Assembly: GCA_900128395.1 (NCBI GenBank)
Contig: LT649260.1
Location: 1 to 54,609, forward strand
Reading direction: 5' to 3'
DNA length: 54,609 bases
Origin: Stramenopiles sp. TOSAG23-2
Taxonomy: Eukaryota
Below, in pieces: positions 18,054 to 45,676 of the stretch. Each line of letters starts with the position of its first letter. The first letter of the stretch is position 1. Under the pieces are notes generated by a model, which was not told the DNA's origin, made no database searches, and saw nothing but the letters and a program-made list of their open reading frames with translations. The position numbers and the translations under genes are program-made.

Positions 18054-19451
18054 CTACTCAAATTTTCCTCTCCAAGCCCATAAACCAGTAGCTGGTTGAG
18101 GAATAAAATAGATAATTTCTTCTTGGCATTCGCCCAAGTCGGAAGACACCCCACTCTCCAAAGTGTTCCACCCTGGTTGCAGCGTTTGCGGGTTATACTT
18201 AGCAAGGTATGCTGAGATATCCCCATACTCGTACCCCACACTTTCAACCTCTTCTTTTGTCAAACTGCCAGGGCAGTAGATAATGCGAAATCGGCCCTCG
18301 GATGTTCCATGTATTAAATGAGCGGCGGCGCTCAAATTCTTCATCAGATCTCGGTTGTTTTTCACGTGTTCCATAACTTCTGGTGTTGTCCGGTATCCAT
18401 ATTTTCTAATTAACTCATCTATTTTGGGATCTTCTCCAAATGTGTTCACGCCGGGTGCAAGCACTATTAGCTCGCCTTTGTCTGCGATTGCCATTCTCGT
18501 TCGATATATGCTTTTATTTCCCAGCCATGTAGAATGAAACTCGTTTGGATCTAAGTAGACCACAACTTTATGAATTGGCTTTTCAAGCATAAAAAAGTTG
18601 CACTGAAGGCTTAGTTTGCTCGCTCGATAGAAGCATTCAGTTCCAGAACCAATATACAATCCACGTGTAACGTACGACTGTGATAATGCATCATTTCCTC
18701 GGACTGTCAAAATGTAAACAATGGGTTTTTCGCTTAGAAATTTATCGCTAGCATAATCGAAAATTTTTCGTAGAGGATTTGCAGCTTGCCCCATCATCTT
18801 TTCCATACCATAACACGCACCTATGAAGTGGCTAAAGTTTATTGCATCGCTGCCACCTATGCCAACGAAAATGTTCTTGCTGTGATTTGCCATTCCAAGT
18901 ACTTCATGGGGAACAACTTGTCCAATAGATAGAATTAAATCATGATCGCCCTCCCAGAGGAGTTTATTCACCTGTGCTGGCCAAGGCTCGTTCACTGCGC
19001 CATCGCTCGCGGCGGCAACTAGTTCCTTTGGCACGTGGCCTACCGTTATAACGTCGTTACGCCAATCATGAACTCGGAAAATTGAATCTGGAATATCATC
19101 GCCAAACATTTTTTTACGTTGCTCTGCTGTCATGGGCTTGTGTGTGCCAAGGGCGGGCATTATATCAGTTATTTTTTCGCCGTAGTATTGATAGGCAAAG
19201 GACGTGACAACTCCGGCATTCGAGTGAAATCGGGTGTAGTCTGGTGGGACGATTAGTACTTTCTTCCTTTCTCCAAGTTTATCAAATGTTTCCCTAAGCG
19301 CATCTTGCAGCTGTGAGTCTGTCAAAATTTTGTCTGGTGCACCATTTTCATAGTGCAGCATTTGAAGATTGCGTCTATTCGATGTATCAAATTCGGTTTC
19401 GACTGAATTGGATTCTCTTGGTAAGTGTAGAGCAAACGGAGGAGTTTTCAT
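18054..19451 (-). CDS. LarA-superfamily (DUF2088) nickel-pincer-dependent racemase/epimerase, sugar-acid epimerase-like
   Basis: 'VPPDYTRFHS', 'PALGTH.PM', 'HDWRND', 'GQVVPHEV.GM' and 'STWLGNKSIYRTRMAIAD.GEL' resemble bacterial LarA homologues. Intronless; ATG at 19451 or 19361. Confidence 0.85.
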   Translation of the reverse strand: MKTPPFALHLPRESNSVETEFDTSNRRNLQMLHYENGAPDKILTDSQLQDALRETFDKLGERKKVLIVPPDYTRFHSNAGVVTSFAYQYYGEKITDIMPALGTHKPMTAEQRKKMFGDDIPDSIFRVHDWRNDVITVGHVPKELVAAASDGAVNEPWPAQVNKLLWEGDHDLILSIGQVVPHEVLGMANHSKNIFVGIGGSDAINFSHFIGACYGMEKMMGQAANPLRKIFDYASDKFLSEKPIVYILTVRGNDALSQSYVTRGLYIGSGTECFYRASKLSLQCNFFMLEKPIHKVVVYLDPNEFHSTWLGNKSIYRTRMAIADKGELIVLAPGVNTFGEDPKIDELIRKYGYRTTPEVMEHVKNNRDLMKNLSAAAHLIHGTSEGRFRIIYCPGSLTKEEVESVGYEYGDISAYLAKYNPQTLQPGWNTLESGVSSDLGECQEEIIYFIPQPATGLWAWRGKFE

Positions 19452-19938
19452 ATTCAAAAGACGCAAAAGAACAACAAACAACAACAATAAACAATAGAGA
19501 GTAATAAAAATAAAATAATAAAACAAACAAATATAATATAATAATTGGAATTAGAATATTAATAAAATATACGACGACGGGCCCTTCCAGGCTTGCCCAG
19601 CTTGCCAGCTCTTGGTGGTAATTGCAACAACAACAACAATTGAAGTAATAATTAAAATTATTATATTATTAGGTACATGGATACAGTAGAAAGTATGAAA
19701 ATACGTATTGATATATTAATATTAATATTAATATTGATATCCCTTAAAAACAAAAAATAGCGATCACGTGCAACATCCCACCCAGACTTTAAATTTTAAA
19801 TATCAGTATCGACTATCATAGTATACTATTTTTAAAAAAATCCTATTATAGCACTAGTACTATAGTGGCCCCGATGAATGTCCCCATGAGGCCCCAATGT
19901 TCCCAATGGCCCCGGTTTAAGGTGAATTGCGAACTTTG

Positions 19939-19955
19939 AAAAACAAAAAAAGAAA
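19939..19955 (-). terminator. Pol III-type oligo-T terminator of the tRNA
   Basis: TTTCTTTTTTTGTTTTT on the minus strand, starting a few nt after the discriminator base. Confidence 0.6.
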
Positions 19956-19959
19956 TTTT

Positions 19960-20100
19960 AGCCAGCTGCCGGAATCGCTAATATTGTGATTTTCCTATGT
20001 TAGCAGTGTTATTTATGTCACTTTTAAAGTTATTCGAAAACTTACAACCGACGACCTTGGGCTTACGAAACCCACGCTCTACCATCTGAGCTAAACCGGC
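19960..20100 (-). tRNA. tRNA-Thr(CGT) interrupted at position 55/56 by a 68-nt insert (exon 1 20100-20046, exon 2 19977-19960)
   Basis: The joined sequence GCCGGTT TA GCTC AGATGGTA GAGC G TGGGT TTCGTAA GCCCA AGGTC GTCGG TT|CGATT CCGGC AGCTGGC T folds into a full cloverleaf with anticodon CGT and discriminator U73. An oligo-T run follows. Confidence 0.93.
19978..20045 (-). other. GT-AG intron with spliceosomal-type signals inside the tRNA T-loop
   Basis: Minus strand reads GTAAGTtttcgaataactttaaaagtgacataaataacacTGCTAACataggaaaatcacaatatTAG. The putative branch A at 20000 is 22 nt from the 3' end. Confidence 0.8.
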
Positions 20101-20515
20101 ATGTCTTCAAATGATGAACACATGTTTTTTTATCTTATGTTTTTCACATAAGGGTTTAATGGCTATTATCGATATTTGGAAATTATTGATATATATACTA
20201 ATATCTTATTTAGCAAGGGAATAGCATTGGGATACCAAAATAGCATTAGCAATAATCGAAAGGATCTATATTTTCCATCAGCATAGAAATAGCTCCTGAA
20301 TCCTTGAAATCCCAGAAATCATCCACTCTTACTCTAATCAAAAAATACACCCGTCATCCGTCATTTTGTGCCATTCCAGCTTTTTGCCACGCCACCATGA
20401 TCGTGATGCACACATATAAAACGAATTCTTGTCCAATCATCATCAATAATAATAATATATATAATAATAAACCAATTATATTTTTGTCCTCCAATCATTT
20501 CAGAAAGTTGTAATA

Positions 20516-20657
20516 ACACGGTAGACAGGATTTTTTAACGTTTCACCAAAATCCCTGGCCCACAAACACGGTACGTACAGGATTTTTATCGTTTCACTAA
20601 AACCGCTGGAAGGTACAAAATATACTTCGTTCCCACAAACACGGTATACAGGATTTT
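20516..20657. repeat. Degenerate direct repeats immediately upstream of the AK-HSDH start
   Basis: ACACGGTA(1-3 nt)ACAGGATTTT occurs three times (~20516, ~20566, ~20639). CGTTTCAC.AAAA...CTGG occurs twice (20539, 20590). Confidence 0.75.
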
Positions 20658-24562: not shown

Positions 24563-25596
24563 TTACAAAAGCTATATGATGGATCAAGATTATTTTTTAA
24601 ACAAATTTATAATCCGTATTTAATATCTTTACTCGGTTTACTCAGTAGGCATAGTCCAGATAATTTAGGAGAAAGAGATGAAAATAACATGGATAATGAT
24701 AATAATAGTGAAGACGAAGATGATGATGATTATGAAAATAGTATGAACAATCCATATGTAAGAGAAAAAGCATATCGCACGAAAACAGCATCTACACTTT
24801 CACGTGTTGAAAAACTTCAAGATTTTGAAAGTTTATTACGAGAATCATTTTTGCGTCGCAAAGGTATTCCACCATTTCTATTTGGAAAACCATTTAAACA
24901 TGTAATGGAAGTTTTTACTGAAAAGTACAATACATTGCCTGTTGCATTAATCACTTCCAGTGGCAAATTGATTATATGCCCAAATCAAAACCACATAGTT
25001 GATAAATCTGATTCTTTATTATGCACGGTACGTGTAAATTCTATTTCCCTAAACCCAACATAGGTATCCTCTCTAACACATCTCTCATTTTCACACGCTA
25101 CGCTCCACAGGTACCAATGGAATATGATCAATTTTTGAATCAATCAATCAATGCAGTTAGACATGCTCGTGGCAAAGATAGTATGAAAGAAAGAAGAGAA
25201 TTATTACGATCTACGCATCGTTTAATATTGCAACAACTACAAGCAGTTGAAAATATTCTAGAACGAATTAATTACGTTTTGAGGCAGGTAGAAAAAGAAA
25301 ATCCAGATCAGTTTCATGATGATCGTGATGGAAAAAAGAATAATGAAACAAATAATAATAATAATAATGAAGAAGAAACATTAAGTGAAAAAGCTGAAAA
25401 TTTATTAAATGCTGTAATTGGAGTAAGGAAAACTTTAAGGGAAAAACAACATGTACTGAAAGGCATTGCATTAGAAAAAAGTGAAAGTGTAGAAGCAGCT
25501 GAAGTTGTATTTCAACAAGTTACTATTAATCAATCTTTAATGAATATATTAGAAGAAAAATGTACTGAATTGCAAAAAAAAGCTGTCGTACATTGA
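24563..25596 (+). pseudogene. 3' fragment of a BK/Slo-type channel-like gene (RCK2-like region plus coiled tail); intron 25028-25110
   Basis: The open frame upstream of ATG 24689 reads 'QIYNPYLISLL', followed by 'GKPFKHVMEVFTEKYNTLPVAL...LIICPNQNHIVDKSDSLLC'. Intron GTACGT...CTCTAAC...CAG joins 'LLCT|VPMEY' in frame. No transmembrane part lies upstream. The splice is well supported; the family call is tentative. Confidence 0.5.
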
Positions 25597-26259: not shown

Positions 26260-29200
26260 ATGTCAACGGAACAAGAGGATAATAATAAACCAAAACATGT
26301 GACACGTGAAGGAAAAGATGGCTCTGGGTATGTAGGAGGCTGGTTAGGTGGCAAGGCACAAGGTAAGGGGAAATATACATGGCCAGACGGTGCTTATTAT
26401 GACGGTGACTGGGATAAAGGTTTAAGTCATGGATTTGGTGAATTAGTCGAAGCTAATGGGCGTATATATAAAGGATTTTGGGTTCGTGATAAACAACATG
26501 GCCACGGAAATATCACATATCCAGACGGTACGACGTATCAAGGTGATTTTAAAAATGGGAAGAAACATGGTAGTGGTACTATGAACATTTCAACCGGGGA
26601 TGTGTATGTTGGTGAATTTGAAAATGATAAAATGCATGGAAATGGTAAAATGGTACGGAACAAAACTGGCATTGAATTTGAAGGTGTCTTTGTAAATGGT
26701 ATCATCAAAGAAGGTACATTTAAGTCACCTAATGGCGGTTCATATGTTGGTCAATTTTTAAGGAAAGGCCAACAACATGGGAAAGGAATTTACTTTGATC
26801 CTAATGGAGAGAAAGAATATGACGGATATTTTATATTAGGGAAAACATGTTCAAAAGAAGAATTTGATAAATATGAAATAGAACATCCAATGTCATCCGA
26901 AGAACAGCAACAAAATGTTAATAACACCGATAATAATAATAATAAAAACAACAACAACAACAATAATAATAATAATGCAAATGTCACAGATTATAAAGGG
27001 AATTATCCAATTTATTATTTAATACATGAAAATCGACCAGCGGAGGAAATTTTACAATACATCGACAACAATTCACCAACGGAGAAAGTTTTAGGTAGTA
27101 TTGATATCAAGACTGGTCGTACATTATTACATACATGTTGTTACAGGGGAGATGATATTAGGACAATACGTAAATTAATAAAATATGCACCAAAAAATGT
27201 ATTGGTGAGAGATAATCGTGGTGGTTATCCACTGCATAGTTTTTGTTTTGGACTTCGTGAGGACAATCGTTTGGATATTTTATATGAGTTACTGAAAGCG
27301 TATCCTGGTGCCATTAAAGAAAAAACACGCAATGGAAATACCCCATTGAGCCTTGCATGTTGGAGGGGTTTAAAGGCTATAATACCGGCCTTGTTAGCAT
27401 TTGATAAAAACCAGATAAACGTGCCAAACAATAGGGGAGAAAGACCACGAGATTTTGTAGTCAATAATCCAGAAATATTAAATATGTTGGAAAATGTTGA
27501 GCAAGTAATCAATACAGTTAAATCTACAATGTTAGAAAGCGAAAGCGGTAAATTGATGGTTGATTTAATCGAACGTGTAAATAAGAATACAACGGCTAAA
27601 AATGAAGAATTAGAAAAAGCAAAGAGGAAATTACGAGATGTGTTAAAAATGAAAAATAGCCAACCTTGGATGAGGTCTAAATTAATGATCGTTGGTGAAG
27701 GTAGAAGTGGAAAAACTAGTACGTTACGTAATTTAATGGGTCAAGAATTTCGCCATGATGAGAAAAGCACGATTGGTGCAAAAACAGATGAATGCATTGT
27801 AAACCATTTTAGTGTAAACATAAATCGATTAAATAGTGAAGAGGCTTGGAGGTCTATAAAGAATGATCCAAATTCAGAAGGTGATTTTGATCATGCAGCT
27901 GCGATGGCATTGAACAAAGAGCTGGAACGTGGAGCAGATCATAATAGTAATAATAACAATACACCTATCAACCAAATGGAAACAAAGAAAGACAATGTTG
28001 ATATGGATGAGGCAAACATTGATGAAGAAACTAATTCTATGAATGGTAAGATTAAAAAAAAAACACCACCACCAAGTCTAAATATTGAAACATCAAATGT
28101 AAATAATAATAATAATATGGAAAATGGCACAACAATTACAAACACAAAAAAGCCATTAATAACATCATCTCAATTGCCGCCCGAAATAATTAAACATTAT
28201 GGTGAAATGAACATAGAAAACTTGTTAAAAGTAAGTGATAGTTTAAAGCTTGGTGTTTGGGACTATGGGGGGCAAGAAATATTCTATGCAATACATCATC
28301 TATTTTTAACTAGATTTGGCGTATATTTAGTATTATTTGACATGCAAAAATTATTAGTTGTTGATTCGGAAACTTCGAATGAATATGCAAAAGCAATGAA
28401 ACTTCTTCATTTTTGGTTGAATTCCATTGCATTATATGGCCGATCCACCTTTCATAACAATAATAACAATGATAGTAAAATGGAAGATAAAGGATCCCCA
28501 ATTTTATTAATTGGCTCGCACAAGGATATCATTAAAGACAAAGATAAACATCGTGAAATATCTGAAAAGTTAAAGTTAGAATTTTCGAATCATTTTAAAG
28601 ATCAGAGAATTATACAAAACGATGAAGACACTTTATGTTTCTTCCCTGTTGATAATACGGATAATAATGATGAGATAATAAAACGTGTGCGCAACAAAGC
28701 GGCGCAAGCCATAGCAGAAGAATCATATATACAAGATGAATATCCGATGCCATGGATGAAAGTTTGTGATGAATTAAAGAAGAAAAGTCGACAAATAGCA
28801 CATTTGAGTTTTGATGAAGTTTGTGATCTGAGTCGGGAAGCTGGAATAATTGATAAAGATGAAGTAAAAGCCATGTTGGAGCATTTTCATGAACTAGGTG
28901 TAGTCATTTACTATGGAAATCGGGAGGAATTAAATAAATTAGTTATCTTAGATCCACAGTGGATTGTTGATCGTATATCTGACGTTATACGAGAGTACAG
29001 TGCTGAAGCCGCGTTGCATTCCAGGGCACGTGATCAAATAGCAATGTCCATGTCAGCAGAATGGACTGAATTGACTACTAGAGGAATTTTAAGTAAACGT
29101 TTATTGCGACATTTGTGGAGAGGTGATAGGCCAAATCTACAATTTCTGTTAACATTGATGCAAACATTTGCCTTGATTGTACCGCTAAAAATTCCTGCAG

Positions 29201-31449
29201 AAGGTTCCATTCTGTTGGAATATATGGTGCCAAATTTGTTGCCAAGTAATGAAAGGTTGAAAGCAACAATTCTTAGTAAAATAAATAGTGAGAATTCCAA
29301 TAAAAACAAGGTTATAGAAATTTCTTTTAAAGATTTTGTACCAAATGGCATCTTTGGTCGATTTTTAGTTGTGGCTTTGGAGTATAATTTTTCCTTGCAA
29401 CTGCAACAAATGGATATAGCTCCTCCAAACGCTGCACGATTAACAACATTAGCAGAAATAAATATCAATTCTCCTAAAAATATTGCACGAAGCTTTTCAT
29501 CTAAAGATCTGGAAGAGAACGGCTCGGAATTGTATAGATCATGGGCTGCATTTTCTATTGAAAAAATTGGCTTTGTAATTACGAAAGAAAAATATGGCTT
29601 TACTGTGTATGTATTAGGCGATAACAATGATACGAGGAACGATAATTTAACCCGTTTATGCAAATTACTTAGTGGTTTATTAGATATCTTAAATACTGAA
29701 TTTTACAATTCAAGGTTAGAAATATATATGAAAACGCCAAACGATGTTGATCCTGTGCCTTTGAATAGTAACAATTTTACTTGGCCTAGACCATCACCAA
29801 ATTTATTGGCTACACCAAAATCAAAAACGGCCCCGGCATATTTACGGCGGAAAGCTGTTGAACAAGGTTACTATACCCTGCCGGATTTAACTAATAGAAG
29901 ACAGGGTAATAACGAACGAGATTCAAACTTTGATTTAGTTCAAGTTGAAAACTTTGTTGTCGGGCGTAATGGGTATGGGAAAATACATTGGTTAACACCA
30001 TTGGATTTAACTGGCGTTGGTGCAATTGATGATATTATTTACATTCAAAATGGTGACGTTTCCCTATATGAATTCCATGAGAAAGAACCAGCGGTTGGGG
30101 AAGAGTTAAATAATCCTGCTAGAATTACATTTGAAAATGTGTACCCGAATGTAGTGACGTTTAAAACAGAAAATAAAGAAGCTAGTGAGGATGAACAGAA
30201 AAAAATTATGGCGCGCTTTAAACGTCGTATTCAGCGTATTGCAAATAAACGCAACTATAAAAACAATAAATATGACGAAAATACGGGCATTTGGCAGTTT
30301 GAGGTAGAGCATTTTTCTCGTCATGGTTATCACGGCGATGATGATGATTTAGTGAAATGGCTACAGGAAACACTATGGTCAAAACCGAAAATCCAAGAGA
30401 AGAAGAAGGAACAAGCTGAAGATTACGCTGGGGGTCTCATTTTTCATGAATTTTATTATGAAGAAGTAATAGGTGACGATCCTCCATCCGAATTGGTATT
30501 AGTATCGGCTGGAATTCATCCCGTGCATGTGAAGAAATTAATACGTGTATTGTATAAGCTCAACCCTAATCGGGAAGATTATAAACAGCTAGTTGAGCAT
30601 TATAATAAAGGGGGAGGTGTGGTAGCTACGTATAACCACCCACAAGACACATCTACTACAAATTCGGGAAATCAAAAACAATCTAGTTCAAATAATAATA
30701 ATAATAACAAGCCGGAAAAACAGAAGCCGGCAGCTGTCGTCTCACAAGTGAAACCGGTAGAAACAACACTTGCTTATGATGTGTTTTTAAGTCATGACTG
30801 GGGGACATTCAAATGCCCAGACAAAGGTACTGCTGTAAAAAATCATGAAAGAGTCAAGCTTATTAATGAAGCTTTAAAGGAAAGTGGCTTGGTAACTTGG
30901 TTTGATGAAGAAGAAATGAGTGGATGTTTAGATGATGCAATGGAGAAGGGAATATCGCAATCTACTTGCTTCTTAGCCTTTATTACAGAAAATTATATGA
31001 AGAAAGTAGGCGGATTAGCACCTGCTGGCGATGCCGACAATTGTCGGAGGGAGTTTGTCTACGCGGCTTTGAAAAAACAACGGCCAAATAAAATGATGAT
31101 ACCTATAGTCATGGATGCTACACAAAGAACTCCAGCTGAGTGGATTTCACTTGTTGCTTTTCATTTAGGCAGTGATCTGTATATGGATATGTCTTCTCCT
31201 AAACTATGGGATGCTACAAAACCTGAATCTAAAGACGAGTTTAAAAAATGTGTTTCAAAACTAATAACTGATTTTATTGAGAGGAAAATTAAGAAAGACG
31301 GAAAGACTTTGATTAAATCGAAAAATGTAGTGGTTGGCTCTGCTAGAAATGCTGTAAATGCTATTAGAGGTACCACAAGTAACAACACAACTAGTGCACC
31401 ACTGTCGAAGCCATCATTGAAACAAAGAAAAAATTCTGGGCCTAAATGA
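26260..31449 (+). CDS. Roco-family protein: MORN repeats - ankyrin repeats - Roc GTPase - COR - Nup98-type autopeptidase (S59) - SAM-like - TIR
   Basis: MORN 'Y.G.W.....HG.G' repeats (aa ~20-195); ankyrins 'GRTLLH', 'GYPLH', 'GNTPLSLA'; P-loop GEGRSGKTS (aa 479-487), 'STIG', 'WDYGGQ', 'GSHKD'; COR 'LEHFHELGVVIYY...VILDPQWI'; 'GYYTLP...VENFVVGRNGYGKI...VGEELN.PA.ITF...TGIWQFEVEHFS' (aa 1203-1353); TIR 'YDVFLSHDWG...TWFDEEEM...NCRREF'. Confidence 0.9.
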   Translation: MSTEQEDNNKPKHVTREGKDGSGYVGGWLGGKAQGKGKYTWPDGAYYDGDWDKGLSHGFGELVEANGRIYKGFWVRDKQHGHGNITYPDGTTYQGDFKNGKKHGSGTMNISTGDVYVGEFENDKMHGNGKMVRNKTGIEFEGVFVNGIIKEGTFKSPNGGSYVGQFLRKGQQHGKGIYFDPNGEKEYDGYFILGKTCSKEEFDKYEIEHPMSSEEQQQNVNNTDNNNNKNNNNNNNNNNANVTDYKGNYPIYYLIHENRPAEEILQYIDNNSPTEKVLGSIDIKTGRTLLHTCCYRGDDIRTIRKLIKYAPKNVLVRDNRGGYPLHSFCFGLREDNRLDILYELLKAYPGAIKEKTRNGNTPLSLACWRGLKAIIPALLAFDKNQINVPNNRGERPRDFVVNNPEILNMLENVEQVINTVKSTMLESESGKLMVDLIERVNKNTTAKNEELEKAKRKLRDVLKMKNSQPWMRSKLMIVGEGRSGKTSTLRNLMGQEFRHDEKSTIGAKTDECIVNHFSVNINRLNSEEAWRSIKNDPNSEGDFDHAAAMALNKELERGADHNSNNNNTPINQMETKKDNVDMDEANIDEETNSMNGKIKKKTPPPSLNIETSNVNNNNNMENGTTITNTKKPLITSSQLPPEIIKHYGEMNIENLLKVSDSLKLGVWDYGGQEIFYAIHHLFLTRFGVYLVLFDMQKLLVVDSETSNEYAKAMKLLHFWLNSIALYGRSTFHNNNNNDSKMEDKGSPILLIGSHKDIIKDKDKHREISEKLKLEFSNHFKDQRIIQNDEDTLCFFPVDNTDNNDEIIKRVRNKAAQAIAEESYIQDEYPMPWMKVCDELKKKSRQIAHLSFDEVCDLSREAGIIDKDEVKAMLEHFHELGVVIYYGNREELNKLVILDPQWIVDRISDVIREYSAEAALHSRARDQIAMSMSAEWTELTTRGILSKRLLRHLWRGDRPNLQFLLTLMQTFALIVPLKIPAEGSILLEYMVPNLLPSNERLKATILSKINSENSNKNKVIEISFKDFVPNGIFGRFLVVALEYNFSLQLQQMDIAPPNAARLTTLAEININSPKNIARSFSSKDLEENGSELYRSWAAFSIEKIGFVITKEKYGFTVYVLGDNNDTRNDNLTRLCKLLSGLLDILNTEFYNSRLEIYMKTPNDVDPVPLNSNNFTWPRPSPNLLATPKSKTAPAYLRRKAVEQGYYTLPDLTNRRQGNNERDSNFDLVQVENFVVGRNGYGKIHWLTPLDLTGVGAIDDIIYIQNGDVSLYEFHEKEPAVGEELNNPARITFENVYPNVVTFKTENKEASEDEQKKIMARFKRRIQRIANKRNYKNNKYDENTGIWQFEVEHFSRHGYHGDDDDLVKWLQETLWSKPKIQEKKKEQAEDYAGGLIFHEFYYEEVIGDDPPSELVLVSAGIHPVHVKKLIRVLYKLNPNREDYKQLVEHYNKGGGVVATYNHPQDTSTTNSGNQKQSSSNNNNNNKPEKQKPAAVVSQVKPVETTLAYDVFLSHDWGTFKCPDKGTAVKNHERVKLINEALKESGLVTWFDEEEMSGCLDDAMEKGISQSTCFLAFITENYMKKVGGLAPAGDADNCRREFVYAALKKQRPNKMMIPIVMDATQRTPAEWISLVAFHLGSDLYMDMSSPKLWDATKPESKDEFKKCVSKLITDFIERKIKKDGKTLIKSKNVVVGSARNAVNAIRGTTSNNTTSAPLSKPSLKQRKNSGPK

Positions 31450-32213: not shown

Positions 32214-35200
32214 TCATTCCTTATCAACATCCATTGGCTTTTCTTCACCACCTTCCTCGGTCTTAGATGCTTCACCATCAGTCTTTGCATCTTCACCTTC
32301 GTCACCCTCTGTTTTCTTTCCTTCATCTGTTTTTGTGCCATCTTCAGCGCCACTTTCTTTTGTTGCGCCTTCATCAGTTTTCGTTGCTTCTTCCTCTTTT
32401 ACCGGTTCTGGTTTCTTTTTGTTAACAATAGGTTTACATTTCTTATCCACTTCGGACCAACGCTTAGAAATATCTCCAACTAATAAGACTGGGTCGGCTG
32501 ACAATGGTAATATCTGCTGTTTTTCTTGCTGGTCGGATAACCATTGCTGTGCGCTATTGCAGCAATTACGGACCTCGTCGCGGTCTTCATCTGTTAAATG
32601 TGCATATTTCTCATCGGACCCATTAACAAGACCTAAAAAGGATTCTGTCAATATACGCAATTGATTACATGCATTTGGCCGTCCGTTCGACTCCACTTCT
32701 CTTTGCGTGATTGGCTTTGTTAAATCTTTTAAATCTGATAATTTGTTCACAAAAACTTTTTTTTTCGCATCATCTGCCTCTTCCGTATAAAGCCAATCTT
32801 CCTCCTTTGCTAACCTGTCGTTTATATTTTGTTTTTCTTCATCCGTTGCAAACTGTGAAAGTTGTCTATCCAATTTATCACGGAAGTCGTATACAAACGT
32901 TTCCAAATCATTTCTCGCATCATGCGTCTCGCGTATGATGCGATCTACTTGTGCCATATTTGCTTCTCGTGATTGTTGAGCAACTATAACTTCCCTTGCT
33001 GGCATACCAGTGTAAACGGCTTCTACTTTCAATTGAACGCGCTTGAATTTCTTTTTCTTTTTCTTTGGTTCCTCATTTTTATTTTCCTCCTCGGTTTTTT
33101 TCGCTTCATCTTCCTTTGGTTTCTCACCTTCTTCACCTTCCTTTTTAGCTGCTTCCTCATTACCTTCTTTACTTTCATCTTTCATAGTAACATCTTCCTC
33201 CTCTGGCTGCTCTACTTTTTCTTCCATATACAAAGCAGATTGTGCACGTAATACACCACTGTGATCTTGAGTTAAAAATACTCGGATACGTGGAATTTCA
33301 CCACCAGTTCCTTTGTCTGGCATACCAGAAATAGTAAATTTGGCAATATGTTGATTGCCACCTGGAAATTGCTCATTGCTGACAACAGCATCGTCATAGG
33401 TTGCTTCCAACGTGAATGGCTATACAAAATATATTTATTTTATTTGTTGTTGTTAGTAACGTTAAAGTTGTACATGTGCAATAATAGAGAAGACACAAGT
33501 TTTGTGTTTATATATATATATATAAATTGTAGTGTCACGATCATAGTAACATTAGGTAATGTAATCAAAAAAGATTGCCTAAAATGTAACTAAATGTTAT
33601 GTGACACCAATTTCATCTTGCACTAATTCCTTAGGATTTTGACATCATACCAAAGCCCTTACACATGGAGTGCTGAAGGTTATATCACATGTAAACACGT
33701 AAAAACACATGAAATTTATAATATGTATATGTATCTGTTTATGTCTGTCTGTCGGTGTGTTTGTGTGTCTGTCTGTCTGTCTGTCGGTATGTCTGTCTGT
33801 CTGTCTATGTTTTGTATATCAATATGTTTTATACTTACTTTATTTCTACGAAAGTTGATTTTTCTTGTACCACTGATACCATTTTTAGAAAATAATGTTA
33901 AGGAATTGACACCTTTACTTTCTACACCTGCACCGCCATCTTCTTCCTCCACCTCCATTTTATTTTCATCTGCAGCTTCAACTACATCTGTTTGGTCCCA
34001 AGAAATTGTTATTGGGTATTGCGTGCCATGTTGGATCTCAAAGGCTTTTACGTTGAATTTTGGTGAGATCATAGCACATTGCAATGCACAACCATGTCCT
34101 GCAGATTCATCCATATCCATAGTTGTCATTAATCCATAATTTGGTTCAACAGGTTCAAGGCCGAAAAATCCACCAATCTTCCTTTTAAATTGAGCCATGC
34201 GCATTGTACCTCCCGTCGCTTCGATGCTTTTTAAATCACTATTTTGAATGCCAACTTCATTCAATGCTTGTTGTATTGGAACTATCATACGATCAGCTAA
34301 AGGTGCGCAAATTTCTTCCAATTCCTCTCGTGTCAATGTTACATTCACTAAATCCCTATCGTTCATTAAGCATTCCACATTTATTTTCACCGATGGAATA
34401 CCACCAGCTAAATTTTTCTTTGCTTTTCCTGCAGCAATTAATAATTTAATATACGCTTTTGGATTCGCTTCCCTGCTCGCATCTAAGCCCGTCTTTGCTT
34501 TAAACTCTGCAACTAATTTATTTGCAATTGCAATGTCGATAATACGTCCACCTAAGAAACGATCATGTGTTGTTGAAAGTACACGCATAGTACCTGTTTT
34601 AAAATGTACAATAGATACAGTGTATTGTGTTGCACCACAATTTATGAACATGGTATAGAAATTTTCTTGGCCATCAAATGCTTTTCGTTGATTTTTCCAA
34701 ATGCCATAATTCAATGCCACTGCAGTGGTATCACTCATCACCCCTAAACATGCAACATTTGCAATTTCACAAGCAGCTAATACTTCATGTCGTTGGGCAT
34801 CGGTAAACCAAGCTGGAACACTTATCACGACATCGGAAGTCTTCACGCCTGGAGTATCAGCAATGGCATCACGTTGGAGTTGTCCAATCAACATAGCAAG
34901 TAGTTGCGTAGCCGTAAATTCTTCATCTTCGCCATCAACTTGTAATGTTGCAACCAATTCCCCAGGAGTTTTTTTGCTTTCACTGAACATTTTAGCATAT
35001 GGTAAAAGCGATAACTCTTTCTCCGTATCTGGTAAACCTAATTTCCGTCCAATTAAACGATTGATGTACCATACTGTATTTTTGTAATTTGATTTGACCA
35101 TAGTATCCGCATTTGCAGCTAATGCACGTTCTTTGCCACTGATGGACACAAGGGTACTGCTACGTCGTTGCGATGCACCATTTAAGACGGTTTTAATACC

Positions 35201-36110: not shown

Positions 36111-36272
36111 TTATTGATCCTGGTCACTATTTAAAACAGTACACTATTGATTTTATAAAATAGCATATGTATAGCATTGTAACAAAAGATTATTGATCCT
36201 GGTCACTATTTAAAACAGTACACTATTGATTTAATAAAATAGCATCTGTATAGCATTGTAACAAAAGATTAT
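36111..36272. repeat. 79-bp tandem duplication with two substitutions
   Basis: TTATTGATCCTGGTCACTATTTAAAACAG...AACAAAAGA starts at 36111 and again at 36190. Confidence 0.9.
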
Positions 36273-36962: not shown

Positions 36963-38642
36963 ATGAGTAACAATAACGAGGGTCAAATGCGTTTAGATGC
37001 ATTAAATATATTAGGATTAACAGAAAATCAAGATAATGAGAAAGAAATTAGACAAGCCTATTTATTAAAAAGTCGAATCTATCATCCAGATAAACGAAAT
37101 CGTATGATAAATAATAATAATAATAATAATCATGAAATGTTTTACATTATAAAAGAAGCATATGAATATTTATTGTCCAAAAATATCATGGAAGAATATT
37201 TTTGTGTATCTAGTGATAATAATGGATCTAGTGTGTCATTTAATAAACAAAACCCTTCATTATTTTCCAATAATAATAATAATAATAATAATACAAATGA
37301 AAATGTAAATAATAATGAAAACAATAATAATACAACGAACGATGATGTAGCTGATGATAATAATAATTCTACTGTTACGTTTCTCTTATGTCCTTTATGC
37401 AATCAACCATTTAAAAAAGGCAGACCATTACGTGCCCATTTGCAATCACCAAAACATGATCTATCTGATGCATCAACGCCATCATTAGCAAATGTCATAA
37501 AAGATGCATTGCAAGGTATTTCGATTGAAGGAAAAGTTGTCTCATCCACTGAACCATATTCAACAACGGCAACGAAAGGATTGAATCAAAAAACATCTAC
37601 ACATGTTGCTGTTAGTATTAAAGGTGTTAGACGTTTAAAATTTCATCCAGAAAAATTAGTAGTATTAAATAGCAATGGTAAAAAAACAAATCAAAATAAT
37701 AACAATCAAAGAGGAAATGGTGTTAGCAAACGTAGGAAAGGTGAAATAACACTTCATCAAGGTAAAATACGAGCAAAAAAAAAAGCAGCTGCAGCTGCTG
37801 CTACGATGGCTTTACGTAAAAAGAAAATATTACATCCTGGTTTGACAGCATGTAGAGATGGTGATTTTCAAGCAGTAAAAGAACTATTAAATAATGGAAG
37901 TTATAATGTTCTTGATGATATAGATAACAATGGATCAAATGGTATACATTGGTGTGCTGGTTCTGGATATTTGGATATATTGAAATATTTATTAAATTGG
38001 TGTAAAATAAAATATGATAAGGATGATATCGTACATTATCGCGATAAACGTAGTGGGCGTAATGCTTTTCATTGGGCAAGTCGTAATGGTCGTATACATA
38101 TATGTCAATATTTATTAGATGAGTATAACATGGATATAAATAGTATTACAAATGATGGTACATCTGCATTTCATTTGACTGCTTGGTCTGGTGAATTTGA
38201 TATGTGTAAATGGCTAGTTGCAAATAAATGTGATCCACATATTATCAATATATTTGGTTGCAATGCAATACATTTTGCCTGTTTAGCTGGAAATTTGAAT
38301 ATGTGTAAATGGTTATATCAAGATTTAAAATTAGATGTGCGATTGGTTCAATTACAAGGCCATCATACATTACACAAGGCAGCATGGGCGGGTCATAAAG
38401 ATATTTGCGAATGGTTACAAGATGATATTGGTATAGATCCTATGAGTAACGTAATGGATAATAAAGGCCATACAGCTGTAAGTAGATATTTATATAGAGA
38501 AACAGAGAGAGATTCTTTATGATATTTTTTAACCTTTTTCATCTCTTCTAACAATATAAAATACACACACACACAGTCAAGACTTGCTGAGATTGCTGGT
38601 CATGTTGAATTAGCAGAATGGTTAGTAAGACATCGCGTGTAA
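36963..38642 (+). CDS. J-domain + C2H2 zinc finger + ankyrin-repeat protein, two exons (36963-38477, 38577-38642)
   Basis: J-domain 'ILGL...EIRQAY.....YHPDK...IKEAYEYL'; 'CPLCNQPFKKGRPLRAHLQSPKH'; about six ankyrin repeats. A 99-nt intron GTAAGT...TCTAAC...CAG restores the last repeat 'GHTA|SRLAEIAGHVELAEWL'. Confidence 0.88.
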
Positions 38643-43051: not shown

Positions 43052-45676
43052 TTAATTCCATTTTCTGAATACTGGTTGACATGCTTCGCCAACTAACAGT
43101 CCATCTGTATTTCCTTGATCCAATGCTTTTTTGTATACAACTAATGATTCTTTATATGCACGAATAATGTAATCAATATCTTTTTCAGTATGTGTATAAC
43201 AAGGTACAAAAATACCTTGGTAAAGAACACCACGAGCAATCATCTCTTGCAAAAATAATGTTCTTAATGCAGCATTAAAGACACCTTCACTATCTTTAAA
43301 GATGGAAATGCTTACCCAGGTGTTATTCATGACTTGGATATTTTTTTCCATACCAGCATCTATAACAGCTTGCCTTATGCCAGCATCTAAACGCGCTACC
43401 ATACGATGTTGATGCCCAATAACATCATTGTCACGGTATGTTTGTATTACAGCTAATGCAGCGGCTAAGCCGTGTGCTTCAGCACCATGTGTAGTTGAGC
43501 ATAAAAATAAACGTGGATATTCTTTTCCATCTTTATCAAAATGTTTTTTTATGCCACCAATATCCATAATTGCTGCTTTCCCTGTCATTGCACAGAAGGA
43601 ATAACCATTTCCAATGGATTTACCCCAACAGCAAATATCAGCATCATAACCATATACAGTTGTGGCACCAGGGAAACCGGAACGATAACCACTAACCATT
43701 TCATCCACAATGAATACAATACCATTTTCTTTACAAATTTGTCCAATTTCTAGATGTGCCTTAGCAACTTCTTCTTTTGAATATTTACATGCATCTGCAA
43801 TGGAATCTGGCTCAGTAATTAATCCAGCGATTTGATCTGGGTATTTAGCAATCAAATCTCTCAATGACTGTGGATTCATACTATCATACGTTACTGTCAT
43901 AGCTGCAATTTCTTTTGGGATACCAAAATCACATGGCGTAGTGCAAATAAACCAATCATCGTAAGAGTAAAATGGATGATTATGTGGCCTTGCAACCAAT
44001 TTTCTGCCAGTATAACCGCGTGCTAATTTCATAGCAGCAGTTGTTACCGTCGAACCATTTTTTGCCATTTTAATACGATCATGACCTGGAATTTGTGCTA
44101 GAAATTCTTTTGCTAATTTCCTTTCCAAATCTGCTGGACGTTGAAAATTTGCACCTAAATATAGTTGTTTAACGACTTCTTCAATTACAGGTTTATATGC
44201 ATGGCCTAGACTGATACTAGTCAACCCCATGGAGCAATCGACATATTCATTACCATCAATATCCCATACGTGAGAACCATCTCCACGTGCAATTGCTGCT
44301 GGGGATCGTTCTGGGAATTGATCATCGCCTTTTGAATACGTATGGGCGCCACCTGGGATCAATTGGTGAATTTCACTGCGGTATACATTCGATTTGGTGA
44401 AGTTTGTGATCAATTTGATTGGACGTACTTCCCCTTCTGCCATTGTACCTGGTGTGACCGGCATTTCAATACCAGTTTTTGTATATGCATTGGAAATTTT
44501 TGCAACTGCAGCAATAACATCATTGACATCATCGTTCGTCATCAATGGGAAACATGGCAATGTGATCATTTGTCTGTATGTTGCCATTGCATTTGGACAA
44601 GTCGTTTCTAACGGATATTTACCGTCAAAATTTTTTTGGTAAAAAGCATGTGCATGGACTGGCATGTAATGAACATTTACACCAATATTTTCCTTACGTA
44701 AAGCAACGTAAAATGCATCACGATCACATGATAATTTTTCCAAATCAATCCTGATAACATATATATGATGTGCATTTAAAACATCAGGTATGTTAACGAT
44801 TGGGTTGATTGTATCGAATTTGCTGAATGCATCATTGTACATTGATGCAATTTCATTACGGCGTTTTATGAATTTGTCAATTTTGTTCACTTGACTGGAA
44901 CCCAATCCACATTGCATATCAGTAATACGATAATTATATCCTAAACTAACCATATCATAACGATGGGATGCTTGTGCTTCCCGTGCACGATAATCACGGT
45001 TGATACCATGTGAACGGAATATACACATTTGTTTGTAGTAATCTTCATTGTTAGTCACAATCATACCACCTTCTCCAGTAGTAATATTTTTCACTGGATG
45101 GAAGCTTAATGTTGTCAAATCAGCGATGCTACCAACTTTACGTCCTTTGTAAGTTGCACCAAGTGCATGCGAAGCGTCTTCAATTAAAATCAAATTATGA
45201 CGTCTACATATTTCAAGTAGAGGATCTAAATCAACTGGTTGACCACACATATCAACTGCTATGATTGCTTTCGTGCGTGGCGTGATCAACCCTTCGACAC
45301 TATCCACATCGATATTAAGCGTATCTGGGTTGACATCAGCAAAGACTACAGTTGCGCCTTCATAAAGAACAGAGTTGGATGATGCAACAAAAGTAACATC
45401 TGCGACAATAACTTCGTCACCTTTTGTAATACCAGCAGCATTCACAGCAACATGCAAAGCAGCAGTACCATTGCAAACAGCTACGCCATACTTTGCACCA
45501 GTATAATCGCATACATCTTGTTCAAATTTTCCAACACGTGGACCAGTTGTTAAGTATGGATCGGTAATACATTTCACCACTTCTTTGATATCATTTTCAT
45601 CAATTGTTTGTTTACCATATGGTAAATTGGACTCACGTACTGGTTTGCCACCATTCACAGCTAAAAAGGATGCCAT
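43052..45676 (-). CDS. Fusion of a PseC/SpsC-like DegT/DnrJ sugar aminotransferase and a GSA-aminomutase-like class-III aminotransferase
   Basis: N-half: 'LPYGKQTIDENDI', 'NGTAALH', 'IEDASHALG', 'SFHPVKNITTGEGG' (K196), 'LGYNYRITD', 'VNVHYMPVH'. C-half from ~aa 425: 'IPGGAHTYSKGDDQFP', 'KNGSTVTTAA', 'DEMVSGYR', 'WGKSIGNG' (K686), 'STTHGAE'. Confidence 0.9.
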   Translation of the reverse strand: MASFLAVNGGKPVRESNLPYGKQTIDENDIKEVVKCITDPYLTTGPRVGKFEQDVCDYTGAKYGVAVCNGTAALHVAVNAAGITKGDEVIVADVTFVASSNSVLYEGATVVFADVNPDTLNIDVDSVEGLITPRTKAIIAVDMCGQPVDLDPLLEICRRHNLILIEDASHALGATYKGRKVGSIADLTTLSFHPVKNITTGEGGMIVTNNEDYYKQMCIFRSHGINRDYRAREAQASHRYDMVSLGYNYRITDMQCGLGSSQVNKIDKFIKRRNEIASMYNDAFSKFDTINPIVNIPDVLNAHHIYVIRIDLEKLSCDRDAFYVALRKENIGVNVHYMPVHAHAFYQKNFDGKYPLETTCPNAMATYRQMITLPCFPLMTNDDVNDVIAAVAKISNAYTKTGIEMPVTPGTMAEGEVRPIKLITNFTKSNVYRSEIHQLIPGGAHTYSKGDDQFPERSPAAIARGDGSHVWDIDGNEYVDCSMGLTSISLGHAYKPVIEEVVKQLYLGANFQRPADLERKLAKEFLAQIPGHDRIKMAKNGSTVTTAAMKLARGYTGRKLVARPHNHPFYSYDDWFICTTPCDFGIPKEIAAMTVTYDSMNPQSLRDLIAKYPDQIAGLITEPDSIADACKYSKEEVAKAHLEIGQICKENGIVFIVDEMVSGYRSGFPGATTVYGYDADICCWGKSIGNGYSFCAMTGKAAIMDIGGIKKHFDKDGKEYPRLFLCSTTHGAEAHGLAAALAVIQTYRDNDVIGHQHRMVARLDAGIRQAVIDAGMEKNIQVMNNTWVSISIFKDSEGVFNAALRTLFLQEMIARGVLYQGIFVPCYTHTEKDIDYIIRAYKESLVVYKKALDQGNTDGLLVGEACQPVFRKWN

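Follow-up and report, generated by a model that had tools for sequence, protein, structure and literature searches.

Here, we describe a tRNA-Thr(CGT) gene, otherwise intact, that is interrupted within its T-loop by a 68-nt insert which is, by its sequence, a spliceosomal-type intron; this anatomy is real and no product of chance. The split gene lies at 20100..19960 on the minus strand of the window, by which we mean the whole stretch of 54,609 nt of DNA that was analysed, and it consists of 55 nt of tRNA, the insert of 68 nt and a further 18 nt of tRNA.

In the literature searched, we came across no account of a tRNA gene with a spliceosomal intron, in agreement with the first-pass annotation of this DNA, according to which none was known. 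The consulted parts of reviews on tRNA gene diversity list only canonical, multiple, BHB-type, split and permuted forms (PMC4033280, PMC3978253, PMC13578239), and textbooks, like an excerpt on nematodes without tRNA introns, treat spliceosomal and tRNA introns as unrelated classes with separate substrates (PMC12530127). A spliceosomal intron in a tRNA would cross the line between these two intron classes. If the reading is true, this would be the first tRNA with spliceosome-dependent maturation, and spliceosomal introns would be able to colonise and persist in tRNA genes. Introns of the mRNA type are already known from non-coding RNA genes, and what appears to be new here is their occurrence in a tRNA together with an imitation of the T-arm at the start of the insert. 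The case would widen the known ones (fungal U6, U2, U1 and U5 snRNAs; rRNA) to the most abundant product of RNA polymerase III (Pol III), and, if it holds, scanners that assume introns at position 37/38 or of the BHB type may miss tRNA genes in other protist genomes.

Anatomy of the split tRNA-Thr(CGT) gene

The gene and its candidate signals are composed of the following parts, with positions given for the window.

20046..20100, minus strand: tRNA-Thr(CGT) exon 1 (tRNA positions 1-55), 55 nt, recognised by ARAGORN and by folding and aligned by the Rfam tRNA model; it holds the acceptor 5' strand, D arm, anticodon arm, variable loop, T-stem 5' strand, T54 and T55
20093-20082, minus strand: A-box, in the D arm of exon 1
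20067-20065, minus strand: anticodon CGT, in exon 1
19978..20045, minus strand: spliceosomal-type insert between T-loop positions 55 and 56, 68 nt
20040..20045, minus strand: 5' splice site GTAAGT, the same as the 5' sites of the Hsp110 and ankyrin-DnaJ introns
20027..20043, minus strand: T-arm mimic, intron nt 3-19, with a 5-bp stem AAGTT/AACTT and a 7-nt loop TTCGAAT; candidate surrogate B-box
19999..20005, minus strand: branch-site box TGCTAAC, whose putative branch A (20000) is 22 nt away from the end of the intron
19978..19980, minus strand: 3' splice site TAG, which fits YAG
19960..19977, minus strand: tRNA exon 2 (positions 56-73), 18 nt, with the remainder of the T-loop, the T-stem 3' strand, the acceptor 3' strand and the discriminator U73 (T at 19960)
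19939..19951, minus strand: oligo-T tract (T7, G, T5) that starts 9 nt beyond the tRNA 3' end and resembles a Pol III terminator

On the intact window, ARAGORN reported no tRNA anywhere, with its intron mode on or off. After the 68 nt had been deleted in silico, the same program called a 73-nt tRNA-Thr(cgt), and the cloverleaf is the unconstrained MFE structure of the joined 73-nt molecule (-28.1 kcal/mol, all stems paired). A cloverleaf with the invariant nucleotides is thus present by both ARAGORN and MFE, but only once the insert is removed. The first-pass annotation had proposed that removal of 20045-19978 restores a 73-nt cloverleaf with discriminator U73 and a downstream oligo-T, and both parts of this proposal proved right: the cloverleaf came back in ARAGORN and in a plain MFE fold, and the T at 19960 is followed by T7 (19951-19945) and T5 (19943-19939). 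The canonical 7-nt T-loop is restored by the exact boundaries only, and equal shifts of both ends by -3 to +3 fail; ARAGORN itself is tolerant of altered T-loops and still called a tRNA for 63 of 625 boundary shifts (up to 12 nt).

The Rfam tRNA model matches at 20100-20019 on the minus strand with 32.5 bits against a threshold of 29, and does so with a wrong structure of 82 nt, in which the start of the insert is used as T-arm and 4 of the 7 acceptor pairs are unpaired; the match is mis-modelled in this way because the T-arm mimic serves as its T-arm. A permissive Rfam search gave no further tRNA-like piece within the window. The earlier expectation that standard tRNA scanners may miss such genes is therefore borne out by one program that is blind to the intact gene and one model that assigns it the wrong structure. 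As the gene is invisible to ARAGORN and mis-modelled by Rfam, the isoacceptor could be scored as missing in such genomes, and covariance-model pipelines may annotate a low-scoring 82-nt tRNA or a pseudogene at 20019-20100 (minus strand) instead of a split gene. A scan of GT..AG deletions would be a simple way to find further cases.

The exons have a GC content of 0.59, the insert of 0.26 and the flanks of 0.32, and the exons are without decay. A fold of the precursor in which the four cloverleaf stems are all retained has -34.6 kcal/mol, and its MFE structure has -34.8 kcal/mol. Across 15 ORFs of the window, 106 of the 580 threonine codons are ACG; with these codons in use, a decoder for ACG is in demand.

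Splice signals of the insert

For comparison, the insert is listed here along with three introns of protein-coding genes in the window, each given with its 5' site, branch region and 3' site.

20045..19978, minus strand: tRNA insert, 68 nt; GTAAGT, TGCTAACA, TAG; branch A to end 22 nt; support from sequence only
33838..33420, minus strand: Hsp110 intron, 419 nt; GTAAGT, TACTAACA (box TACTAAC), TAG; branch A to end 33 nt
38478..38576, plus strand: intron of the ankyrin-DnaJ gene, 99 nt; GTAAGT, TCTAACA, CAG; branch A to end 25 nt
24758..25110, plus strand: intron of a third gene, 353 nt; GTAAGA, TCTAACA, CAG; branch A to end 34 nt

In the RNA run X14, a contig passes over the Hsp110 intron (joint 33419->33839), the reading frame stays open for 479 aa on one side of this joint and for 401 aa on the other, and Hsp110 homologues of 870-871 aa are found at 90-91% identity. 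For the other two genes, the predicted joints lie between open frames of 500 and 21 aa (ankyrin-DnaJ gene) and of 89 and 161 aa (third gene). These introns came from a search with an intron-like regular expression, which had nine matches in the window, and besides the tRNA insert three of them join long open frames; the remaining five candidates were dropped, since no long frame is joined. At the tRNA insert itself a junction of coding exons was excluded, the frame being open for only 11 and 43 aa. As a separate observation, the Hsp110 intron contains a (TGTC)16 microsatellite at 33742-33806.

CTAACA is common to the four introns of this list, and their branch A lies at a distance of 22-34 nt from the intron end. 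The signals that the first-pass annotation had read in the insert (GTAAGT, TGCTAAC with its A 22 nt from the end, TAG) are in place, and so are those it had given for the mRNA introns (GTAAGT/TACTAAC/TAG in Hsp110, GTAAGT/TCTAAC/CAG in the ankyrin gene), across both of which the frames join. Its assignment of the insert to the spliceosomal (U2) type is in turn supported by each feature that could be tested, i.e., a host-like GTAAGT, a branch box near the host's usual distance and a YAG end, all of which match the host introns.

Chance is a poor account of this agreement. The pattern GTAAGT-N20-50-CTAAC-N5-30-AG occurs once in the window, counting both strands, and exactly at the insert, with 0.30 occurrences expected anywhere, and the joint chance of having the three splice signals in place is about 2.5e-7 as calculated from base composition. 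Additionally, when GT..AG deletions of 30-150 nt were tried over the whole window, a tRNA was created across the joint by 1 in 29,445, and this one was the deletion of the insert. Splice signals and deletion scan together are beyond chance and so point to an intron that is spliceosomal in type, rather than to a random insertion.

Within the 54.6-kb window the insert occurs once only, and neither a target-site duplication nor terminal inverted repeats are found at its borders, where the flanks read GGTT and CGAT and the insert ends GTAA and TTAG. The earlier remark that no target-site duplication is visible is thus upheld, both by reading the flanks and by the repeat check. Introners are recently gained introns with their own splice signals and, in the partial accounts consulted, are known in marine picoeukaryotes; lacking a second copy, a target-site duplication and terminal inverted repeats, the insert does not look like a DNA-transposon introner in this comparison within the 54.6-kb window.

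Proposed transcription and maturation of the split gene

The insert splits the internal Pol III promoter element of the tRNA gene, the B-box, and leaves a G in place of C56. That the B-box is split had been pointed out in the first-pass annotation, and this part of its claim stands; the other part, that transcription would have to be by Pol III independently of a B-box or by Pol II, needs revising, because the intron starts with a look-alike of the T-arm and B-box that could serve instead. The B-box consensus is GGTTCGANNCC, and TTCGAAT is the consensus T-loop. The core of the look-alike, TTCGAAT, follows the split B-box at a distance of 9 nt and is flanked by TT/AA where the consensus has GG/CC, such that the mimic agrees with the B-box in its 7-nt core only. 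Within the window, on both strands, the mimic is the sole hairpin that combines a perfect 5-bp stem with a TTCRANY loop, and among 20,000 dinucleotide shuffles of the intron such a hairpin arose in 5. The hairpin has a dG of -1.0 kcal/mol, and it includes a T4 run that could act as a partial Pol III stop. The presence of the mimic suggests a maintained promoter or structure element and, with it, selection on expression. Further, the intact A-box, the T7/T5 tract, the GC-rich exons and a precursor capable of the cloverleaf fit a predicted stand-alone Pol III gene that still needs its promoter.

The closest known parallel is the U6 snRNA of fission yeast, where, according to the consulted parts of the sources, a Pol III transcript carries an mRNA-type intron which the spliceosome cuts out (PMC5855946; bioRxiv 10.1101/2023.01.27.525755). 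The same partial sources describe spliceosomal introns in U6, U2, U1 and U5 snRNA and rRNA genes (PMC5855946), and, by the title of Frendewey et al. (1990), the S. pombe U6 intron holds a match to a tRNA B box. The tRNA-Thr insert resembles these fungal U6, U2, U1 and U5 introns, as far as the excerpts describe them, in being a short intron with canonical 5', branch and 3' sites in a small non-coding RNA gene, and it resembles the S. pombe U6 intron also in its T-arm/B-box look-alike. By analogy with the fission-yeast U6 intron, the T-arm mimic could thus substitute for the split B-box, and it would then be a second, independent Pol III promoter element inside a spliceosomal intron. Unlike in S. 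pombe U6, the match extends over the 7-nt core only, splicing is predicted, and the host RNA is a tRNA and not a component of the spliceosome, so that closeness to the catalytic centre cannot explain the insertion. The spliceosomal introns in fungal nuclear rRNA genes (Bhattacharya et al. 2000, as cited in the consulted part of PMC5855946) are alike in interrupting a structural-RNA gene that is not transcribed by Pol II, and differ in that rRNA comes from Pol I and the taxon is another one.

The route that we propose is transcription by Pol III from the intron-borne element followed by spliceosomal removal of the insert, to which we assign a probability just short of even. Pol III would transcribe the gene from the intact A-box and the surrogate B-box/T-arm at the 5' end of the intron and would terminate at the T7 tract 9 nt past exon 2. 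The 68 nt would then be released by the spliceosome in lariat form, with the branch at A20000, and the exons joined, which would restore the T-loop, and RNase P, RNase Z, CCA addition and modification would yield a tRNA that reads ACG codons. We know of no precedent for the splicing of uncapped, fast-folding Pol III pre-tRNAs. The intron itself was probably reverse-spliced into a tRNA transcript that then underwent reverse transcription and recombination, a course of events that would explain why a target-site duplication is absent. This is the origin proposed for U6 snRNA introns, and excerpts of two sources likewise state that introns of U6-type snRNAs are thought to come from reverse splicing (PMC5855946; bioRxiv 10.1101/2023.01.27.525755). 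The case would accordingly lend support to the idea that introns can be gained when they are reverse-spliced into abundant RNAs.

With transcription by Pol III and by Pol II taken together, the signals tip the balance slightly towards the insert being spliced. The fuller reading, that this is a working and possibly the sole tRNA-Thr(CGU) gene, in which a B-box relocated into the intron drives a Pol III precursor and the T-loop is completed by the spliceosome instead of the tRNA endonuclease, is put forward tentatively, as something rather less than an even chance.

A dead copy is a less probable account, which we regard as unlikely and still worth weighing. An intron would have landed recently in one of several tRNA-Thr(CGT) genes, by reverse splicing, by intron transposition or as an introner-like element, and would have inactivated it, with an intronless paralogue supplying the tRNA and exons that have not yet decayed. 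An observation in its favour comes from the DNA metagenome X3, where one contig connects 19977 with 20046 and lacks the 68 nt; its depth of 14 is close to the 13-19 of this organism's contigs in X3. The joint has a short side of 20 nt at a likeness threshold of 90%, other letters may lie between its two sides, and such joints often come from other organisms, which weakens the case. From the joint it follows that an intronless or differently interrupted copy exists somewhere. What the contig represents may be a paralogue or an allele that lacks the intron, a relative's orthologue or the tRNA of an unrelated organism; were it a paralogue from this very genome, the organism could do without the split gene. 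A dead copy would also agree with the split B-box and its G for C56, and with spliceosomal tRNA processing being without precedent in the literature searched. It agrees poorly with perfect GC-rich exons in a genome of 33% GC and with perfect splice signals, and it leaves the T-arm mimic, very unlikely by chance, without explanation. Also to be counted against it is baker's yeast, which has a single-copy gene for the CGU isoacceptor.

Returning to a spliced precursor, an improbable variant of it is that the tRNA lies within a Pol II transcript, either the long 5' leader of the neighbouring LarA-like gene or an independent non-coding RNA, from which the intron would be removed co-transcriptionally like an mRNA intron before RNase P and RNase Z cut out the tRNA. 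The normal substrates of the spliceosome are, as in any textbook, Pol II transcripts, the split B-box would be immaterial on this route, and the tRNA does lie upstream of the LarA-like gene in the same orientation (ATG at 19451, 509 nt downstream of the tRNA). What counts against it are the A-box, the B-box-like mimic and the T7/T5 tract after exon 2, which are what marks a stand-alone Pol III gene. The tRNA and the LarA-like mRNA are not linked by any contig, those of the mRNA ending at 19342-19379, and the cover is too thin to count either way: in contigs from poly(A) metatranscriptomes, the bin 19492-20155 has a depth of 0 in X12, 0.66 in X14 and 0 in X18, with the tRNA itself uncovered, and the value for X14 is attributed to a low-complexity match at about 19616-19639. 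As a Pol III precursor is not expected in poly(A) contigs, the zero cover of the tRNA is uninformative for the Pol III route as well as against it.

Excision by the tRNA splicing endonuclease and a ligase, with the GT..AG signals being incidental, is very improbable. Eukaryotic T-loop introns in tRNA genes do exist, and BHB-like motifs are described for them in the consulted parts of two sources (PMC13578239, PMC4033280). The D- and T-loop tRNA introns of Cyanidioschyzon merolae, Chondrus crispus and nucleomorphs, as far as the excerpts go, are like the present case in that the T-loop of a nuclear tRNA gene is broken up and standard scanners miss the gene, and unlike it in being BHB or BHB-like and cut by the tRNA splicing endonuclease, whereas the tRNA-Thr insert has GTAAGT/CTAAC/TAG and no BHB (PMC13578239, PMC4033280, PMC9602550). 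The first-pass annotation had named excision via a BHB motif as an outcome that would speak against a spliceosomal intron, and the motif was sought at the insert borders and was not found there: when placed in canonical geometry, the borders form 1 of 4 pairs in the central helix, 2 of 5 in the outer and 1 of 5 in the inner one; with the geometry relaxed in 25 ways, 3 of 4 central-helix pairs are reached at best, and the motif is absent from the MFE and centroid folds. The insert also sits at 55/56 and not at 37/38 of the anticodon loop, the position of endonuclease introns, and three incidental splice signals would have to be put down to the joint chance given above.

An assembly or amplification chimera, absent from the organism, would account for the one X3 contig without the insert, and is just as improbable as endonuclease excision, given that a chimera would not hit the exact ends that restore the tRNA nor have all three host splice signals (5' site, branch box, 3' site) in register, and that the insert is unique in the window.

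Host organism and neighbouring genes

The window has a GC content of 33%, long ORFs and few introns, and it encodes eukaryotic proteins of flagellar and housekeeping function, including CFAP74, tubulin-tyrosine ligase, Rpc25, PI31, EMC2 and Hsp110. The nearest named homologues of its Hsp110 are from stramenopiles (oomycetes at 40-41%, Chrysoparadoxa at 40%), and no taxonomic lead came from the ESM Atlas. The surrounding 6.5 kb, a result on the neighbourhood and not on the tRNA, were found in 18 runs besides the two possible source runs; they come from 12 other studies, all of which are seawater or marine except one aquatic metagenome and one coded organism. The host is an AT-rich, intron-poor marine flagellate, the closest named relatives of which are stramenopiles.

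Searches with parts of the locus returned few relatives. At the protein level, relatives appear at 72-97% identity in one search and at 59-91% in another. A 25-nt stretch of exon 1 had 0 exact matches in the metagenome, viral and genome contig collections. For the aspartokinase-homoserine dehydrogenase protein, one distant locus (L005, 29% identity) was present among 583 pattern matches in metagenome contigs, and no relative of the LarA-like protein was present among 6 pattern matches in viral contigs. Four viral contigs (L001-L004) that match the 26-nt 5' end of the tRNA were set aside as irrelevant, being phage tRNA arrays with an uninterrupted tRNA-Thr(TGT).

The tRNA sits between the LarA-like gene and the aspartokinase-homoserine dehydrogenase gene. 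The former (18054-19451, minus strand) encodes 465 aa with a lactate racemase N-terminal domain and belongs to a family better known from prokaryotes. In the AT-rich spacer about 30-90 nt downstream of the tRNA (19868-19930, minus strand) there is a GC-rich patch with repeated GGGGCC, ATTGGG and CATGGGG. On the other side, shortly upstream of the start codon of the aspartokinase-homoserine dehydrogenase gene, direct repeats are found at 20515-20657 (two copies of CCCACAAACACGGTA and two of a 20-nt unit, the latter at 95% identity), which may be promoter elements.

Elsewhere in the window, an ORF of 1729 aa (26260-31449, plus strand) brings together MORN repeats, ankyrin repeats, a Roc-COR GTPase, a Nup98-type autopeptidase and a C-terminal TIR domain, an unusual combination, and an ORF of 874 aa (43052-45676, minus strand) encodes a DegT/DnrJ/EryC1-type aminotransferase fused to a class-III aminotransferase domain. 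Finally, the spacer upstream of the ankyrin-DnaJ gene holds a tandem repeat with a unit of 79 nt (36111-36272, 2.1 copies, 97% identity).
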